This document shows positions 1,093 to 7,499 of a DNA stretch of 7,499 nt, in pieces. Each line of letters begins with the position of its first letter. The first letter of the stretch is position 1. The DNA is taken from IMG/VR virus record IMGVR_UViG_2671180433_000015. One strand, given 5' to 3'. A program made the translations under genes and the position numbers. Origin of the DNA: a virus (taxonomy: Duplodnaviria; Heunggongvirae; Uroviricota; Caudoviricetes). The notes below the pieces were generated by a model, which ran no database searches, was not told where the DNA came from, and was given only the letters and a program-made list of their open reading frames with translations.

Positions 1093-1971
1093 TCAGACTG
1101 CAAGATCCAAGGGAAGATCAGAAATATCCTTTAATCTTTTACCATTAACCATCACGGAAAGCATGTCAGCTGCATCGCTGAGCCCCAGTATTTCAACTGC
1201 TGATATAAGTTCATAAAGCGCAAAATGATACACGCAATCTATATCACCAGTACCAAGAGCAATAGACGCCAGACGACTTGGAGTAGGCTCAGCAGTAACA
1301 ACCATTACATGAGGGAGATTTCCCTTACGGTTGCGAATAAGATTTAATGCCTCAGAACGAGCATTCTGGGCCCGGTCGCTTCTTATTGTCCATTTGCAGG
1401 AAATACTTGCGTGTAATATTGGTTTCCCACCATTCGAACTCCTGAGAGCTGACATGCGGGTAACAGAATCATCCACCAGTAATTCAGGACTGTTGATAAC
1501 TTGATCACATTCAGGTTCTCTTTCAACAATAATATCTGGTGAAATCGTATAATCACTCCCCAGTGCAGCAGCTAGCTGAGGATTACTTTTTGCAGCACTA
1601 TCCAATGCTATAAGATGGGCATATTGTTCATATTTAGCTATCTCTAATCTGTTTCTACCAGAAACCTGATGTACATTCCATTTTCCAGGGCGTAAGTGGC
1701 TGAGTTTAAAAAAGGTTTTTTCTATAAACTCTGCGCAGATACTCTCAAACTGATTACCAGATGTTTGCCCTGCAACACGTTCACCAATCGTTTCAGCCTG
1801 CAAGAAGCGAGCAATTTCTCTTGCTATAGCTTTACTGTTTTTGTTACTGCTATCTGCGTTACTAACAACTCCGGCAGTATTAATTGTGAGCGTATTCAGT
1901 AACAATTGGGCATGAAACTCCTTTCTGGCTTCAGCAAAACCAACTATGCTGTCAACCAAATCTCCATTCAT
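1093..1971 (-). CDS. Putative Type II restriction endonuclease, NgoMIV/Cfr10I-like class (292 aa)
   Basis: Track ORF 1093..2106 trimmed to ATG 1971-1969 (MNGDLVDS...). That start lies 13 nt after the methyltransferase TGA stop (1987-1985) and 9 nt after a GAAGGA SD. Motifs, numbered from this start: SPD146, S191-C-K193, E208, and R197-S-D199-R200 four residues after the lysine. This matches the non-classical PD...SxK...E active site plus R-x-D-R recognition element as I recall it for NgoMIV, Cfr10I, Bse634I and SgrAI. Co-oriented with and immediately downstream of a C5-methyltransferase. Confidence 0.6.
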   Translation of the reverse strand: MNGDLVDSIVGFAEARKEFHAQLLLNTLTINTAGVVSNADSSNKNSKAIAREIARFLQAETIGERVAGQTSGNQFESICAEFIEKTFFKLSHLRPGKWNVHQVSGRNRLEIAKYEQYAHLIALDSAAKSNPQLAAALGSDYTISPDIIVEREPECDQVINSPELLVDDSVTRMSALRSSNGGKPILHASISCKWTIRSDRAQNARSEALNLIRNRKGNLPHVMVVTAEPTPSRLASIALGTGDIDCVYHFALYELISAVEILGLSDAADMLSVMVNGKRLKDISDLPLDLAV

Positions 1972-1984
1972 TTCTGGATTTCCT

Positions 1985-3109
1985 TCAGGCTGCTTGACTA
2001 TTCTTACTGATGTTATTCTTATACCGTCCCTGCAAAACTCCATACACATATTGTGCGATTTTTGCCGCAAATAGCGGTGGAACAGCATTCCCGATCTGCT
2101 TTGCAATCTCAGTTTTTGAACCGGTAAAAATGAAATTATCAGGAAAAGACATTAATCTCGCTGCCTCACGATGAGTTATTGGCCGATCCTCTTCCGGATG
2201 TAAATATCGCCCTTTCTCCGGTTTGAAAAACTCAGTACGAATCGTTACTGAAGGTTTGTCCCACCACAGACGTCCAAACAAATCGGTCCCTCCAGATTTC
2301 TTTTTTAGCCAGCACGCCGGGGTTATATCAGGTCTTTTTTTCTGTAAATCGAAACGGTTACCTCCTGGTGGAACCGCTTTATATCGCTCCAGAGAAACAG
2401 GAGTGGGATTACGCCCAAAATGTAAGTTCAGCGGAGGAAGTTCATTACGAATATCAGTTCCAACAGGAGCAGGTAAGTCACCAATTGCATCACGCGTACA
2501 GACCCATTCAGGCAAAGCGACATCCTTATCAGGGGAACGATGCGTTGGTGCTGGCGGGAACGCCGGAATACTATGCACATCGAAGAGTTCTCGTTTGATA
2601 CCGATTGCTATCGTTCGTTTTCTTGTCTGAGGTACTCCATAGTCAGCAGTATTCAACACCATTGGATTAAGCAGAATAAAGCCCATGGATTTCGCTCTAA
2701 ACGTAATGTCCGCAAACTCATCGCTTATCAGCAATCCGGGGACATTTTCCATGACGAACATACAAGCCCTTGAACGCTCAATGACATCCATATAAGGCTC
2801 CCACAATGCTCTTCGGTGATCACCATAACGATTCTTATTCAATAAACTGAATCCCTGACACGGGGGGCCACCTATGACCACATCAGCCTCAGGAACAGTA
2901 TTGCTGGATGCCCACTCCTCAATATTTGCCTGAACTCCATGCAAACCAAAATTGGCATTGTAGGTATTTATAGCTGCAGCATTATTATCAATAGCAAGGA
3001 TACTTTCAAAGTAGTCAGACATCTCTCCATGAAGAAAACCATAAGATAATCCACCTGCCCCACAAAAGAGGTCTATCACTCTGAATTTATTTAATTCTTT
3101 CATCCGCAT
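1985..3109 (-). CDS. DNA (cytosine-5)-methyltransferase (374 aa)
   Basis: Canonical m5C-MTase motifs in order: I DLFCGAGGLSYGF (FxGxGG), IV GGPPCQGFS (catalytic PCQ), VI ENVPGL (ENV), VIII QTRKR, IX REAARLMSFPDNFIF, X QIGNAVPP. About 150 aa between motifs VIII and IX forms the variable target-recognition domain. ATG at 3109 has a GAGG SD 7 nt upstream. No N-terminal HTH extension. Confidence 0.9.
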   Translation of the reverse strand: MRMKELNKFRVIDLFCGAGGLSYGFLHGEMSDYFESILAIDNNAAAINTYNANFGLHGVQANIEEWASSNTVPEADVVIGGPPCQGFSLLNKNRYGDHRRALWEPYMDVIERSRACMFVMENVPGLLISDEFADITFRAKSMGFILLNPMVLNTADYGVPQTRKRTIAIGIKRELFDVHSIPAFPPAPTHRSPDKDVALPEWVCTRDAIGDLPAPVGTDIRNELPPLNLHFGRNPTPVSLERYKAVPPGGNRFDLQKKRPDITPACWLKKKSGGTDLFGRLWWDKPSVTIRTEFFKPEKGRYLHPEEDRPITHREAARLMSFPDNFIFTGSKTEIAKQIGNAVPPLFAAKIAQYVYGVLQGRYKNNISKNSQAA

Positions 3110-3192
3110 CCATATGCCTCAGATTAATGTTGAGCGTCTTACAGGACGCGTAATGTTAACTGGGGCTTTCTCTATCTGCCTTTTGGTGTTCA

Positions 3193-3217
3193 TGCCTGAG
3201 GCAGACAGCCTCAGGCA
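3193..3217. other. Perfect 9-bp inverted repeat (stem-loop) between the QueH-like gene and the methyltransferase gene
   Basis: TGCCTGAGG (3193-3201), 7-nt loop CAGACAG, CCTCAGGCA (3209-3217). GC-rich stem. No U-tract follows on either strand, so it is not a canonical intrinsic terminator. Confidence 0.5.
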
Positions 3218-3226
3218 CCCGCAGCA

Positions 3227-3287: not shown

Positions 3288-3974
3288 TCACTCCTTCTCT
3301 TCTTTTCCGTAGTGGAGTTGGCCAATTTTGATAAGAGGGCGTCCCTGAGATTTGCGGTGTAGATTGGTATCGCGCAGAGAATACACACAGCCACAATATT
3401 CCTGCTGATAGAATTTTTCGCGCTTGCTGATTTCAATCATACGGGACGAGCCGCCCTGCTTGCGCCAGTTATAATCCCAGTACACCATACCCGGATAATG
3501 CGCAACAGCTCGCCGCCCACACTCGTTAACCTGCTGCATATTTTTCCAGCGTGAAATGCCCAGTGAACTACTGATCACACTGAAACCATTTTCAGCAGCG
3601 TACAACGCTGTCCGCTCAAAACGCATGTCAAAACACATGGTACAACGGATCCCCCTCTCAGGCTCCCATTCCATTCCTTTGGCACGTTCAAACCAGTTGT
3701 CGGTGTCGTAATCAGCATCGATAAACGGCACGCCGTGTTGTTCAGCAAAGCGAATATTTTCATCCTTACGAATTAAATACTCTTTCTGAGGATGAATGTT
3801 CGGGTTGTAGAAAAAGATGGTGTAGTCGATTCCCGAGGCCTGAAGCGCCTCCATCACTTCACCGGAACATGGAGCACAGCAAGAGTGCAGTAGTAGTTTG
3901 TTTGCCCCGTTTGGAAGCTCCAATTTAGGCCGTTTGAAATCAGCAATAGTCATAAATATTTTTATTGGGGTCAT
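3288..3974 (-). CDS. QueH-like epoxyqueuosine reductase family protein (DUF208), Fe-S protein
   Basis: 228-aa track ORF. N-terminal [15 protein letters not shown] motif and C-terminal EYCGCVYS cysteines fit the conserved Cys pattern of DUF208/QueH as I recall it. An alternative ATG at 3953 would give MTIADF...; neither start has a strong SD. Confidence 0.6.
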
Positions 3975-4127: not shown

Positions 4128-4553
4128 CTAGTAACGTCTAAAATATCTAACATTTCCTTGATAAAATGCCAGTACACGCTGCATAGCTTCGCTCTTCCGG
4201 CACTCGCGACAGATTATATTCAGGCGCCTGTCGTAGCGGCGTATTTCGCCGTCTGGTAACGACCAGATAAGGTCCGGATCAACCACTGCAGGTTTCTTCA
4301 CCTTTGCCCTTGAGAGTTTTTTGCGAGCATTTTGCCAGTCCTTACGCGCCTGTTCAGACGGGAATAACCCGTAACCAGAGTTGTATACATCGCCACTGGC
4401 AACCAGCTCTCTGGCGAGAACACTCATCAGATATCTTGTCGCACCTGTCCTGGCTTCCAGTTGCCGCAACGTCTCGCGACCGCTCAGACGTACAAGTTCA
4501 ACAACCTGCCCTTTAATTTTTTCCCGCTCTTCTTGTGTAAATACTTTTGCCAT
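4128..4553 (-). CDS. Ren-like winged-helix phage protein (141 aa)
   Basis: Track ORF 4128..4568 starts at TTG; the ATG at 4553 has a GGAGG SD 7 nt upstream and lies 15 nt after the stop of the upstream gene. The C-terminal segment ICRECRKSEAMQRVLAFY and the internal ARTGAT resemble lambda Ren as I remember it (FKECRQSAAMKRVLAVY; ALTGAT). The family call is from memory and is low confidence. Confidence 0.5.
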   Translation of the reverse strand: MAKVFTQEEREKIKGQVVELVRLSGRETLRQLEARTGATRYLMSVLARELVASGDVYNSGYGLFPSEQARKDWQNARKKLSRAKVKKPAVVDPDLIWSLPDGEIRRYDRRLNIICRECRKSEAMQRVLAFYQGNVRYFRRY

Positions 4554-4568
4554 AAGCGCCTCCGGCAA

Positions 4569-5339
4569 TCACTTTTCCGATACAACACGGCGGGAAGAAT
4601 CAGTAATCTGTCGAACAATATCCCGGTGCTTGTTCAGCTCCCGCAGCGCGGCGCAGACTCGCTCCCACTTCTGAACATCACTTTTCGCCCTGCGCAGCGC
4701 CAGGTTTGCCCTGCGAAGGGACGGAAAAATCAGCTCATCTGCTTGCGTTTCGGTAAACGATGGCAACGGCTGCACAATGTCCGCCACAGTTTCTGTTTTA
4801 ATTTCTTCCTGTGTTGCGGCTTCCCGGACTGGTAACGCAGCACCTGCTGGCTGAGGAAAGGCCTTACCATCACTTTCCGTTACCAGCGCGGCTTTCGGCT
4901 CTGCTGGTAAATTATCGCCCGGCATGCAGTAACGAAATTTACCGTTCTGATTAACGCGTGCCAGCCGCCCCGTTGCGGTTACCACCGCCAGCGTGGAAGC
5001 AACCTTGCGAGTACTGACACCGAACTTACCCGCCAGTTCCTCACACGTTTTAGCCCCATCCTGACCGATAAACTCAATCATCATGTCTGCGGTAACTTTT
5101 TGTTCGACCTCCCCGGTCAGCATATCCTGTGCTTCAGATTTTACTGGCCGCTCTTCGGTTACCCGGGATTCACCTTCGCCAGCCAGAAACCAGGTGTGAC
5201 CAGTTTTATCAACGACGCCTTTTCTTTTGAGTTCCCACAGCTCGTTGACAGCCTCTTCACGACTGATTCCAAGGCGAGCTGCCACCACATGTGAAGAGGC
5301 TTTTTTCAGTGCTTTCAGTGCGTCAGATACGGTTTCCAT
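4569..5339 (-). CDS. Phage hypothetical protein with two winged-helix-like repeats (256 aa)
   Basis: ATG 5339 with GGAGG SD 8 nt upstream. Two internally similar segments (VVAARLGISREEAVNELWELKRKGVVDKTGHTWFLA and CEELAGKFGVSTRKVASTLAVVTATGRLARVNQNGKFRY) look like HTH or winged-helix DNA-binding units. Sits between the helicase loader and the Ren-like gene. Confidence 0.7.
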   Translation of the reverse strand: METVSDALKALKKASSHVVAARLGISREEAVNELWELKRKGVVDKTGHTWFLAGEGESRVTEERPVKSEAQDMLTGEVEQKVTADMMIEFIGQDGAKTCEELAGKFGVSTRKVASTLAVVTATGRLARVNQNGKFRYCMPGDNLPAEPKAALVTESDGKAFPQPAGAALPVREAATQEEIKTETVADIVQPLPSFTETQADELIFPSLRRANLALRRAKSDVQKWERVCAALRELNKHRDIVRQITDSSRRVVSEK

Positions 5340-5360
5340 TAAAATTTCCTCCGGACAAAA

Positions 5361-6107
5361 TTACTTCACAACCCTCATATTGCTGACATTTGGACGCCAG
5401 CTATCCCAGTTAAACGTCACCCATCGACCACCGTTCATGGTCATGCGGTCCATAATCCTCTCACCAAGAAGCGTACTCATTGCGGCATGATTCAGGTTTG
5501 TTAACATCCCGACACTGCACAGTGATGCTGTCCGGCGATCAATTATCTGGTGCAATACCACCTGCTCGTTTTTCGTCTCCCGCTGAACGCCTATTTCATC
5601 CAGGACCAGCAAATCAACCCCGCAAAGCTCCTGTAAAAATTTTTCCCCGGATTTGCCGTTGTCGTAGCTGTCATGCAACACGCTCATGACGTCAGACACG
5701 GTGACGATAATCACGCTGCGCCCCTTCACCATCAGCCGGTTGCCCATCGCCGCTGCAAGGTGATTTTTCCCGGTGCCGGTTTTACCGCTGAACACAAAAT
5801 TCGTGCACCCGGTCATCAGTTCGTCAGCTATGGATTTGGCCTGGCTCAGCGCGTATTTTTGCCCGTCGTTCTGCACCTGATAATTTGCAAACGAGCATTT
5901 GCTGTGCAGAGGCTGGATGCCCGAACGATTCAGGATTTTTTCCACCCGCAACTGGCGATTCTGGCGGTTAATCTCCTCGCTGCGTTTTCGTCCTTCAGCA
6001 AGTTGCCATTCCCGCCACTCCTCCACCGTCCGGTACGGTGGAACCGACCCCTGTGGTGCAAGTCTGCGAATACGTTCAAGAACCCCAACTGCCGCAATGT
6101 TTTTCAT
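5361..6107 (-). CDS. DnaC-family replicative helicase loader (AAA+ ATPase, IstB-like), 248 aa
   Basis: Walker A GKTGTGKNHLAAA and Walker B DLLVLDEIG. Extended collinear similarity to E. coli DnaC as I recall it (NRSGI.PLH..CSF.NY, TGMLTN, LLGER.MDRM, FNWDS.R). ATG 6107 lies 6 nt after the stop of the upstream initiator gene. Confidence 0.9.
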   Translation of the reverse strand: MKNIAAVGVLERIRRLAPQGSVPPYRTVEEWREWQLAEGRKRSEEINRQNRQLRVEKILNRSGIQPLHSKCSFANYQVQNDGQKYALSQAKSIADELMTGCTNFVFSGKTGTGKNHLAAAMGNRLMVKGRSVIIVTVSDVMSVLHDSYDNGKSGEKFLQELCGVDLLVLDEIGVQRETKNEQVVLHQIIDRRTASLCSVGMLTNLNHAAMSTLLGERIMDRMTMNGGRWVTFNWDSWRPNVSNMRVVK

Positions 6108-6113
6108 GACACG

Positions 6114-7076
6114 TCACCCCCTGAATCCCGGCGGTATTTCAGTGTCCGGTTCAGAAATGTGATTCACGCAACGCTGCGCAGGCGAACGCCCCAGGCGGAT
6201 AACCAGTTCATCCCATTTTTCCCGGAGTTTTGCCGGACTCATGATGTTTTTTACCCAGAACGAATCCCGCTGGAGACGCCCAAACATTTCACAAATTTGT
6301 CTGTGAGTTCTGCCATCCAGCATCCGCATTGTGCGAACGTCATTGGCCCATGCTGTCCAGTTGGGTTCTTTCGGTCTAGTGATCTCGCCATCATAGCTGG
6401 CCGCCTGCTCGTAAAGACTCACGATTCGTCCCCAGATCCACTGTGCGCACACCAAATCTTCCTGACTTCCCCACTGGCGTTTTTTCGCACTGAACACAAC
6501 CGCGTCAGGGTGTCGGGTTAAAAAATCCTGTTCAGCCGTCTGCGGGTCCGGTTGCGAAGCGTCCGGACAAGAAGATCTTTTATCTGACGGATCAGGTTTT
6601 AATACTGACGGATCGGGGTCAATCATCGCCCCCCTAATCGGCAGTTTTTTATCAACAGTTGATCCATCAAAATTTGACGGGTCAACCGTTGAGGGGGCAA
6701 TATTTGACGGGTCAACTGTTAACGGGTCATTTTTTGCCGGGCTAATTTTTCTTTTCGGTTTATATGACTCACGCGCCGCCGCCGCAGCTGCTTCGAGTTT
6801 TTCCACATTAAGCCGATAGATATTGCTTACATTACGCCCACCGACCTTACGCTCTTCCTTCGTCAGCCAGCCCTCTTTCGCCAGTTCTGCAATAGCCGAT
6901 TTCACTGTGGATTCACTTCTTGCACCGATCTGACGCCGGATAGTTTCAATGGCAGGCCATGACACGCCCTCGTCATTGCTGTAGTCTGCAAGACGGGCCA
7001 TAACCGCCACCCTGGATAAGATCATGCCGGTGAAGGCGCACCCTTCCCAGACAAGACCATGAAGCTTGCTGCTCAT
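6114..7076 (-). CDS. Phage replication initiator (lambda O-like, N-terminal HTH) with DnaT-like C-terminal tail, 320 aa
   Basis: Track ORF 6114..7091 starts at GTG; the ATG at 7076 is preceded by a GGGGG SD. N-terminal HTH-like region (LSRVAVMARLADYSNDEGVSWPAIETIRRQIGARSESTVKSAIAELAKEGWL). Central Pro/Asp/Ser-rich repeats are encoded by the iteron array. C-terminus ...SEPDTEIPPGFRG resembles the C-terminus of E. coli DnaT as I recall it. Operon arrangement mirrors dnaT-dnaC. Confidence 0.85.
   Translation of the reverse strand: MSSKLHGLVWEGCAFTGMILSRVAVMARLADYSNDEGVSWPAIETIRRQIGARSESTVKSAIAELAKEGWLTKEERKVGGRNVSNIYRLNVEKLEAAAAAARESYKPKRKISPAKNDPLTVDPSNIAPSTVDPSNFDGSTVDKKLPIRGAMIDPDPSVLKPDPSDKRSSCPDASQPDPQTAEQDFLTRHPDAVVFSAKKRQWGSQEDLVCAQWIWGRIVSLYEQAASYDGEITRPKEPNWTAWANDVRTMRMLDGRTHRQICEMFGRLQRDSFWVKNIMSPAKLREKWDELVIRLGRSPAQRCVNHISEPDTEIPPGFRG
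6584..6770. repeat. Iteron array plus adjacent AT-rich tract inside the initiator gene (putative phage origin of replication)
   Basis: Direct repeats built on TGACGG(G/A)TCA at 6585, 6606, 6675 and 6705, plus a partial copy at 6722. Repeats 3 and 4 are near-identical 20-mers (TTTGACGGGTCAACCGTTGA and TTTGACGGGTCAACTGTTAA). A related palindromic TCAACAGTTGA lies at about 6652-6662. AT-rich stretch 6728-6770 (CATTTTTTGCCGGGCTAATTTTTCTTTTCGGTTTATATGACTC). Confidence 0.55.
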
Positions 7077-7098
7077 AAAACCCCCGAACACCGTGCTT

Positions 7099-7308
7099 TT
7101 AGTGCATCACCACAGCATTCCCTGCCGGGCCGCCGCGATTCATCTGGTCATACAAAACAACCGCTGACGCAACAAAATCATCGACATCCTTCACCAGCCG
7201 ATCCCTCCGTTCGACGATCTCACGGTAATATTCAGAACTGTGGCTGCGCATACGGGCCACCAGCAAAGGCGGCATCGCCTTTTCGATCGCCGGTAACAGA
7301 GCCTGCAT
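7099..7308 (-). CDS. Small hypothetical protein (69 aa) immediately upstream of the initiator gene
   Basis: Track ORF; ATG at 7308, stop 22 nt before the initiator ATG. No clear SD. The same frame stays open up to the stop of the upstream gene (7411-7413) with no alternative ATG/GTG start. Confidence 0.4.
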   Translation of the reverse strand: MQALLPAIEKAMPPLLVARMRSHSSEYYREIVERRDRLVKDVDDFVASAVVLYDQMNRGGPAGNAVVMH

Positions 7309-7410
7309 TTTTTCAACAGCATCAGGGGTGTCTTTCTCTACCCAGCGGAAAATTTTCTGGGTATTGCGAGCCAGGGCTTCCGGATGGCTGTCGTCGGTGA
7401 TGCTGCCAAC

Positions 7411-7499
7411 TTACTGATTTAGTGTATGATGGTGTTTTTGAGGTGCTCCAGTGGCTTCTGTTTCTATCAGCTGTCCCTCCTGTTCAGCTACTGACGGGG
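7411..7499 (-). CDS. C-terminal end of an unidentified gene; partial, start lies beyond the window end
   Basis: Only one minus-strand frame is open across 7414-7499 (...PSVAEQEGQLIETEATGAPQKHHHTLNQ, stop TAA 7413-7411). No other support. Confidence 0.25.
   Translation of the reverse strand, partial: PSVAEQEGQLIETEATGAPQKHHHTLNQ

Follow-up and report, generated by a model that had tools for sequence, protein, structure and literature searches.

Within a 7,499-nucleotide stretch of a Caudoviricetes genome (Duplodnaviria; Heunggongvirae; Uroviricota; IMG/VR virus record IMGVR_UViG_2671180433_000015), hereafter referred to as the window, the segment at positions 6567-6745 probably serves as the origin for the replication module of a lambdoid prophage and lies inside the linker-coding part of the gene for the replication initiator. 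Based on the sequence comparisons described below, a probability of roughly 0.75 is assigned to this reading. The initiator gene occupies 6114..7076 on the minus strand and encodes 320 residues from the ATG at 7076, the version in the list of open reading frames (ORFs) beginning at a GTG at 7091. Its product matches PHROG 391, 'replication initiation O-like', with an expectation (E) value of 2e-115, and bears the RefSeq label 'helix-turn-helix domain-containing protein'. The repeats in this segment, their constraint at the level of the DNA, their position in the gene, the domain homologies of the encoded protein and the co-inheritance of its parts as modules are established in the present analysis.

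A preliminary description of this DNA had reported four to five direct repeats of a TGACGG(G/A)TCA core, two of them within near-identical 20-mers 30 nucleotides apart, and had placed them inside the initiator coding sequence, where they would give rise to peptide repeats; each of these points is upheld, and the array proves more regular than described. With at most one mismatch allowed, the window contains seven matches to TGACGGRTCA, compared with an expectation of 0.83 +/- 0.94 from 200 dinucleotide-preserving shuffles of the window, none of which reaches seven. Six of the seven matches are located within 6585-6729, three of them exact (6585, 6675 and 6705), two with a single mismatch (6606 and 6720) and one in the reverse orientation (6660). 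The 20-mers at 6672-6691 and 6702-6721 are identical at 18 of 20 positions, and Tandem Repeats Finder resolves 6652-6729 either into 5.2 copies with a period of 15 or into 2.3 copies with a period of 30.

The proximal iteron array (6659..6730) consists of five 12-bp palindromic units of the form TTGA-N4-TCAA at an exact spacing of 15 bp, or about 1.4 helical turns. On the plus strand these units start at 6659 (TTGATCCATCAA), 6674 (TTGACGGGTCAA), 6689 (TTGAGGGGGCAA), 6704 (TTGACGGGTCAA again) and 6719 (TTAACGGGTCAT), and a degenerate sixth unit, TTGCCGGGCTAA, follows on the same strand at 6734..6745 in register with the array, as is the repeat family that includes 6712-6741. Two further, distal copies at 6585 and 6606, 21 nucleotides apart, stand nearer to the part encoding the C-terminal domain. 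All units fall within the linker-coding part of the minus-strand ORF (6114..7076/7091), from residue 105 to about residue 190, and encode five-residue units such as VDPSN, IAPST and FDGST. The units possess internal dyad symmetry, either as TTGA-N4-TCAA or as TGAC-NN-GTCA, and the relative L161 carries a perfect 14-bp palindrome, TCTGAACGTTCAGA. Alleles within E. coli vary in unit number by whole 15-nucleotide insertions or deletions; a scan of IMG/VR with the N-terminal protein sequence, which returned 80 loci with identical N-terminal domains, served for allele counts only.

Repeats of this kind could arise as a by-product of slippage in a low-complexity Pro/Asp/Ser linker, through recent duplication and with no role in cis, an account favored by the single reading frame with its five-codon period, by the predicted disorder of the linker and by alleles that differ by whole 15-nucleotide units. 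The behavior of the codons is at variance with it. When codons were permuted within the gene while the protein was kept, the six core matches of the window gene compared with a mean of 1.62, and none of 2000 such synonymous shuffles reached six; TGA-N4-TCA was observed four times against 0.61 in the shuffles (1/2000). Across a family set of 80 homologous loci (L089-L168) from about 70 other Enterobacterales species, in which the N-terminal domain is 53-74% identical, 327 copies of TGA-N4-TCA were counted against 68.5 +/- 8.3 in synonymous shuffles. Within the 80 loci, each of 3.3 kb, this motif reaches a density of 14.1 per kb in the 270 linker-coding nucleotides, compared with 0.32 per kb in the remainder, a 44-fold difference, with at least two copies in 78 loci and a spacing between neighbors of exactly 15 nucleotides in 144 of 226 cases.

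Additional indications come from the choice of individual codons and from the orientation of the sites. The Ser of [D/E]-x-S is encoded by TCA in 87% of the linker cases, as opposed to 17% elsewhere in the same genes, and the second Ser of the unit is fixed as TCT. The outer TGA and TCA triplets are held across the roughly 70 species while the residue between them can be P, G, A, T, R or V. Strong sites with an asymmetric centre are found both ways round (CCCG 53 times versus CGGG 10 times, and CCCC 14 times versus GGGG 7 times), and a flipped motif alters the peptide, from DPS to DGS in VDPSN versus FDGST in the window and from IDPSN to VEGST in Erwinia. Moreover, the linker repeats of phage mEp460 lie in different reading frames, and third codon positions in the distal part of the segment are invariant in 63 genes. 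Because of the synonymous shuffles, the codon bias, the orientation flips and the invariant third codon positions, the motif is, on these sequence comparisons, constrained as DNA beyond what the protein requires. Given the combined tests, a purely peptide-level explanation appears unlikely, and slippage and duplication without any role in cis is a highly improbable origin for the array. The whole repeat region codes for a linker that is predicted to be disordered, residues 110-200 being unstructured in an AlphaFold2 model with predicted local distance difference test (pLDDT) values below 50; such a linker would therefore tolerate codons imposed by the DNA, which can thus bear a second code.

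The other conserved part of the putative origin is the distal element (6567..6614), which spans 48 nucleotides, includes an A-rich run as well as an AT-rich spacer, and matches the lambda AT-rich region in position. On the gene strand it reads GATCCGTCAGTATTAAAACCTGATCCGTCAGATAAAAGATCTTCTTGT and holds two copies of GATCCGTCAG (plus-strand positions 6584-6593 and 6605-6614) with the 21-nucleotide offset noted above, and its GATC sites in the window are found at 6574, 6590 and 6611. This element was located in 63 relatives, where its third codon positions are nearly invariant (GAT 63/63, CCG 58/63, TCA 63/63, GTA 63/63 and a second GAT 62/63), its mean AT content is 65% compared with 48% gene-wide, and two GATC sites are always present. 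Between the window and phages of the SfII type the element is 88% identical, compared with only about 70% nucleotide identity for the N-terminal domain. BLASTP pairs the peptide encoded by 6570-6620 with a peptide from the lambda AT-rich region, and a local DNA alignment of the distal element with that region yields 24 matches in 30 positions.

These results shift the likely site of strand opening away from the AT-rich stretch that the preliminary description had singled out beside the repeats. That tract (6730..6769), T-rich on the plus strand and encoding the Lys-rich peptide KPKRKISPAKN, does exist, and among all 40-mers of the replication module (4128-7308) it ranks in the top 1.3%. However, at 67.5% AT it is modest, equally or more AT-rich patches being present at 6635-6674 and 6567-6606, and it is not conserved, a counterpart being absent from SfII, phiNP and most relatives. 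Its position also differs from that of the lambda element to which it had been likened, since it lies on the N-terminal side of the array; the segment that aligns with lambda is 6567-6614, which is also the only one of the AT-rich segments conserved across relatives.

The comparison with lambda rests on the initiator's C-terminal domain (6177..6620, minus strand), which BLASTP and tblastn identify as a homologue of the C-terminal domain of lambda O, the domain that interacts with the helicase loader. Residues 153-300 align with residues 145-277 of lambda O at 35% identity over 148 residues (BLASTP, E value 5e-26), and tblastn with this domain matches lambda, phi80, H-19B, BP-4795 and many Shiga toxin (Stx) phages. 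The Stx phages 933W and P27 likewise have a lambda-type origin, with six iterons. According to the lambda record, the C-terminal homology starts precisely at the end of the four annotated iterons (39034-39118), after which comes the AT-rich region; the array of the window thus has the corresponding location in a gene of partial homology. As in ori lambda, dyad-symmetric repeats stand in the middle of the gene between the parts encoding the N-terminal DNA-binding domain and the C-terminal domain, a segment richer in AT separates the repeats from the C-terminal part, and repeats and N-terminal domain make up a single specificity module. The two systems differ in that lambda O has an N-terminal Phage_rep_O domain where the window protein has HTH_36, the lambda AT-rich element is 80% AT compared with 62-67% here, the lambda loader is of the P type and that of the window is DnaC/IstB-like, and only the window initiator ends in a DnaT-like tail.

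The N-terminal domain (residues 1-105; 6762..7076, minus strand) is predicted to be a winged helix-turn-helix domain and is presumed to bind the origin. A match to Pfam HTH_36 at residues 30-76 (E value 2e-6, 28-30 bits) exceeds the curated cut-off, whereas Phage_rep_O (PF04492), for which lambda O scores 123 bits, gives no match in the window protein even at E<=1. In the AlphaFold2 model of residues 1-200, the first 105 residues reach pLDDT values of 77-91 with the topology H-H-H-H-beta-beta-H, and Foldseek relates them to dimeric winged-helix regulators of the MarR, PadR and ArsR types. An N-terminal helix-turn-helix in the initiator had been anticipated in the preliminary description; the family proves to be HTH_36 and not Phage_rep_O. 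The wider proposal in that description, of a lambda-style iteron origin within the initiator gene, finds good comparative support in the DNA constraint, in the lambda-like position and in co-inheritance with the N-terminal domain, and needs correction in the placement of the AT-rich tract and in the family of the N-terminal domain.

At its other end, the initiator carries a tail of 21 residues (6117..6179, minus strand) that resembles the C-terminus of host DnaT. The tail reads AQRCVNHISEPDTEIPPGFRG and closely matches the extreme C-terminus of DnaT, as the stretch SEPDTEIPPGFRG shows. The parallel extends to gene order: the DnaC-like gene comes immediately after that of the initiator, in the same way that dnaC follows dnaT in E. 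coli. Relatives that lack a neighboring dnaC-like gene, SfII for example, end in xPxGFRG too. This resemblance suggests either mimicry of DnaT for the recruitment of DnaB-DnaC or a captured dnaT-dnaC junction, and it accounts for the annotation 'Primosomal protein I' in phage records.

The modular structure of the gene supplies a further line of evidence. Megablast against phages limits the 86% nucleotide identity with mEp460, HannyBb and PhiR42_1 to 6121-6581, delineating an exchangeable C-terminal module (6121..6581), and the resulting mosaic boundary at about 6575-6581 falls just past the last repeat. Phage mEp460 combines the same C-terminal domain with an unrelated N-terminal domain and with different linker repeats, GGTCAAAATG; Phi06_2987 combines an SfII-type N-terminal domain and its array with another C-terminal domain; and Edno5 has a distantly related N-terminal domain, three 24-nucleotide repeats of ATCCCAAAATTGGGAT, a lambda-type C-terminal domain and a P-type loader. 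Judged from these exchanges, the repeats are inherited with the N-terminal domain, as expected of a module for origin specificity. Three iteron subtypes can be distinguished: TTGA..TCAA accompanies a KS(K/E)(T/S)TV helix, TCTGAC..TCAAA accompanies a G(E/P/A)STVRT helix, and TCTGAACGTTCAGA, in L161 and L168, accompanies STVIT. This covariation of recognition helix and iteron provides a hint at most, being imperfect (L167 and L166 break the pattern) and inseparable from co-inheritance.

The tracking of iteron subtypes with subtypes of the N-terminal domain, and the unrelated repeats that accompany unrelated N-terminal domains, also bear on the suggestion that the motif is read by another factor, such as a host protein, Dam or SeqA acting through GATC, or a phage regulator, or that it is a recombination hotspot making the mosaic junction. 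Such a role would suit a distal element that is conserved whatever the iteron subtype and always has two GATC sites, and the mosaic boundary near 6575-6581 would suit a hotspot. Set against the matched inheritance of repeats and N-terminal domains, this suggestion is very unlikely.

The mechanism proposed for an origin at 6567-6745 follows the lambda precedent (PMC7466680), in addition to what has been inferred for P22 and L (PMC8022706). The N-terminal winged helix would bind the palindromic array and the two distal GATC copies to form a complex resembling the O-some. The adjoining, moderately AT-rich segment would then open, 6567-6614 being the best candidate and 6730-6769 the alternative. 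Finally, the lambda-O-like C-terminal domain and the DnaT-like tail would recruit DnaB via the phage DnaC-like loader. By this analogy, we infer initiator binding, unwinding and helicase loading.

Sites that bind the initiator might instead serve autoregulation or copy control, as a transcription roadblock on the initiator's own gene and the loader gene, or by titration and handcuffing, with strand opening and loading taking place elsewhere in the prophage. This possibility draws on the location of the array inside the transcribed initiator-loader operon, on the lack of a strong AT-rich unwinding element adjacent to it and on the control roles that plasmid iterons are generally known to have. 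Nevertheless, relative to the homologous C-terminal domain the array holds exactly the position of the functional lambda ori, and neither the rest of the window nor that of the 3.3-kb loci, where the density outside the linker is 0.32 per kb, shows another cluster of the motif. The same sites could, moreover, serve both control and initiation, and a purely regulatory function with an origin elsewhere is quite improbable.

Several observations weigh against an origin at 6567-6745. The sites are short, with arms of 3-5 bp and a 4-bp centre, and stand 15 bp apart, which is unusual for a winged-helix dimer; the lambda iterons, in contrast, measure 18-19 bp with starts 20-24 bp apart, compared with sites of 10-12 bp at a 15-bp period here. 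The unit at 6689-6700 is one base off the majority E. coli allele, TTGAGGGGTCAA, in a direction away from the consensus. The best 40-mers (6635-6674, 6727-6766 and 6567-6606) reach 65-70% AT compared with 80% in lambda, so that there is no strong unwinding element. As all copies share one reading frame, some selection on the peptide is possible, and homogenisation of the repeats by unequal crossing-over, which would also preserve codons, could contribute; the counts over the 80 loci are, in addition, phylogenetically non-independent. In this genome, an IS1 insertion sequence lies between the initiator operon and its promoter region, and the origin is therefore probably silent here. A literature search turned up no description of the motif or of an origin in any of SfII, SfIV and SfV, and the SfIV genome paper lists the replication genes without describing an origin.

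A more specific interpretation joins the close-packed mini-palindromes, the distal GATC element and the tail, taken as a copy from host DnaT, into an architecture distinct from that of lambda. Such a joint interpretation is rather unlikely to hold in full. If it did, TGA-N4-TCA every 15 bp would set each winged-helix dimer on almost the opposite face of the DNA from the next; the subtype-independent distal element with its two invariant GATC sites would couple firing to Dam methylation or SeqA; and the tail would recruit DnaB-DnaC as the replication-restart primosome does, unlike the hijacking carried out by lambda P.

Among the systems already known, the initiators of lambda, P22 and phage L have different iterons inside their own genes (PMC8022706; PMC7466680), and gene 18 of phage L contains six imprecise 11-bp repeats from which an origin has been inferred (PMC8022706). 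The P22 and L gene 18 products are distantly related initiators, each with its own iteron set within the coding region; on the basis of their descriptions, they are set apart from the window system by their repeats, by their N-terminal domains and by a DnaB-type helicase (gp12) as partner. Phages SfII, SfIV and SfV, Citrobacter phage phiNP and E. coli phage 689R6 belong to the same initiator family, with an HTH_36 N-terminal domain. Phages of this SfII type share a TGACGGGTCA core at 30-nucleotide spacing that alternates with weaker TGA-N4-TCA units, in addition to the distal GATCCGTCAG pair and the PxGFRG tail. They differ from the window in the flanks of the units (TCTGAC...TCAAA versus TTGA...TCAA), in having neither the AT-rich tract on the N-terminal side nor an adjacent DnaC-like gene, and in an extra palindrome, CCGYCAGAATCTGGSG, which is present in 61 of the 80 relatives and absent from the window.

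This palindrome, which encodes the peptide FHP(S/P)ESGG, is found at about nucleotides 390-420 of the gene, between the array and the distal GATC element, and also occurs in L103 and L007. It is never found outside the linker, and the subtype to which the window belongs has CTGCCGATTAGGGGGGCGATGATTGAC instead. By eye it resembles the lambda palindrome TCGTCAGAGAATTCTGGCG to the right of lambda's AT-rich region; the aligner left the two unpaired, and no claim is made for this likeness.

Iteron plasmids offer a more remote parallel. Their iterons measure 17-22 bp, lie outside the rep gene and have control roles, and their Rep proteins contain two winged-helix domains. Plasmids such as pSC101, R6K, RK2 and P1, whose initiators are of the Rep_3 type, resemble the present system in having tandem initiator-binding repeats beside an unwinding element and a winged-helix initiator, the difference being that the repeats here are intragenic; a Pfam scan of the window returned no match to Rep_3. 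The oriJ/YdaU system of the Rac prophage was ruled out as a known equivalent, YdaU being a DUF1376 protein and thus a different initiator.

The neighborhood of the initiator gene is the early-right operon of a lambdoid prophage, and intact prophage copies show the gene order repressor, cro, ydaT, initiator and loader. Directly downstream of the initiator gene lies the gene for a DnaC/IstB-like AAA+ helicase loader (5361..6107, minus strand), which matches Pfam IstB_IS21 (E value 7e-19) and PHROG 50, 'DnaC-like helicase loader', and scores 506 bits with NCBIfam PRK12377 and 299 bits with DnaC. No internal promoter, terminator or known RNA was found when these were looked for in the repeat region. 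Upstream of the initiator stands the 3' part of a YdaT/CII-like gene, which is broken at 7395 by an IS1 end (7396-7499) inserted just upstream of the initiator. The closest genomes align to the window only through 7395, and the final 110 nucleotides of the window are 100% identical to IS1A and IS1B copies on thousands of plasmids. Because IS1 interrupts this upstream cII/YdaT-like gene, the prophage is probably crippled in this genome.

Beyond the loader gene, the window continues with DUF1627, DUF977 and QueH genes. The gene for QueH, an epoxyqueuosine reductase (3288-3974, minus strand), adjoins those for DUF977 and DUF1627 in the early region of the prophage and is kept in the related prophages L001 and L173. 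Between QueH and the DUF968, RusA and Q genes, still inside the prophage, a low-GC gene pair (1093-3109) encodes a type II restriction endonuclease of the NgoMIV family and a DNA cytosine methyltransferase; at this position the prophage copy L001 has hokD instead. A match to the Rfam sok antitoxin RNA (3040-3220, minus strand; 61 bits, with a gathering score of 59) extends over intergenic DNA and the 5' end of the methyltransferase ORF; related prophages have the hok/sok (hokD) locus at this position, of which the match is probably a part or a remnant.

The module is widespread among enterobacteria. Of 5426 complete E. coli genomes, 1542 contain the N-terminal domain and repeat segment at an identity of at least 80%, O157:H7 strains among them. 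Relatives are known from SfII and SfIV, which convert the serotype of Shigella, and from prophages in some 70 further species of Enterobacterales; a search for homologues of the N-terminal domain, which yielded mostly truncated fragments, only seeded the genome scan and the structure alignment. In E. coli EC261 and Z0117EC0133 (L003 and L004), variants of the initiator with 87-91% nucleotide identity over the N-terminal domain and repeats are followed directly by DUF977 without a DnaC-like loader gene, which shows that the module can do without the loader. A circular 'plasmid' record of 15,977 bp from a dog E. coli isolate (NZ_CP148542.1; L174) contains only the repressor-to-lysis region of this prophage, the present replication module included, and no typed plasmid replicon. 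It could be a replicon like lambda-dv or an assembly artefact of amplified prophage; as evidence of autonomous replication it carries little weight, with ydaT and the initiator gene frameshifted at homopolymers.

In terms of principle, an origin at this location leaves the concept unchanged: origins located in initiator genes, with iterons matched to the N-terminal domain, belong to the textbook knowledge of lambda, and the same has been inferred for P22 and L; no feature was found that demands a new mechanism. No paper describing the origin of the HTH_36-type module was found, which makes it an uncharacterised example of a well-known kind. Knowing the position of the origin would help to interpret the in-situ amplification of prophages after induction, to build lambda-dv-like vectors or incompatibility tools for this module, and to annotate a large group of proteins that so far bear no label beyond 'HTH domain-containing protein'.

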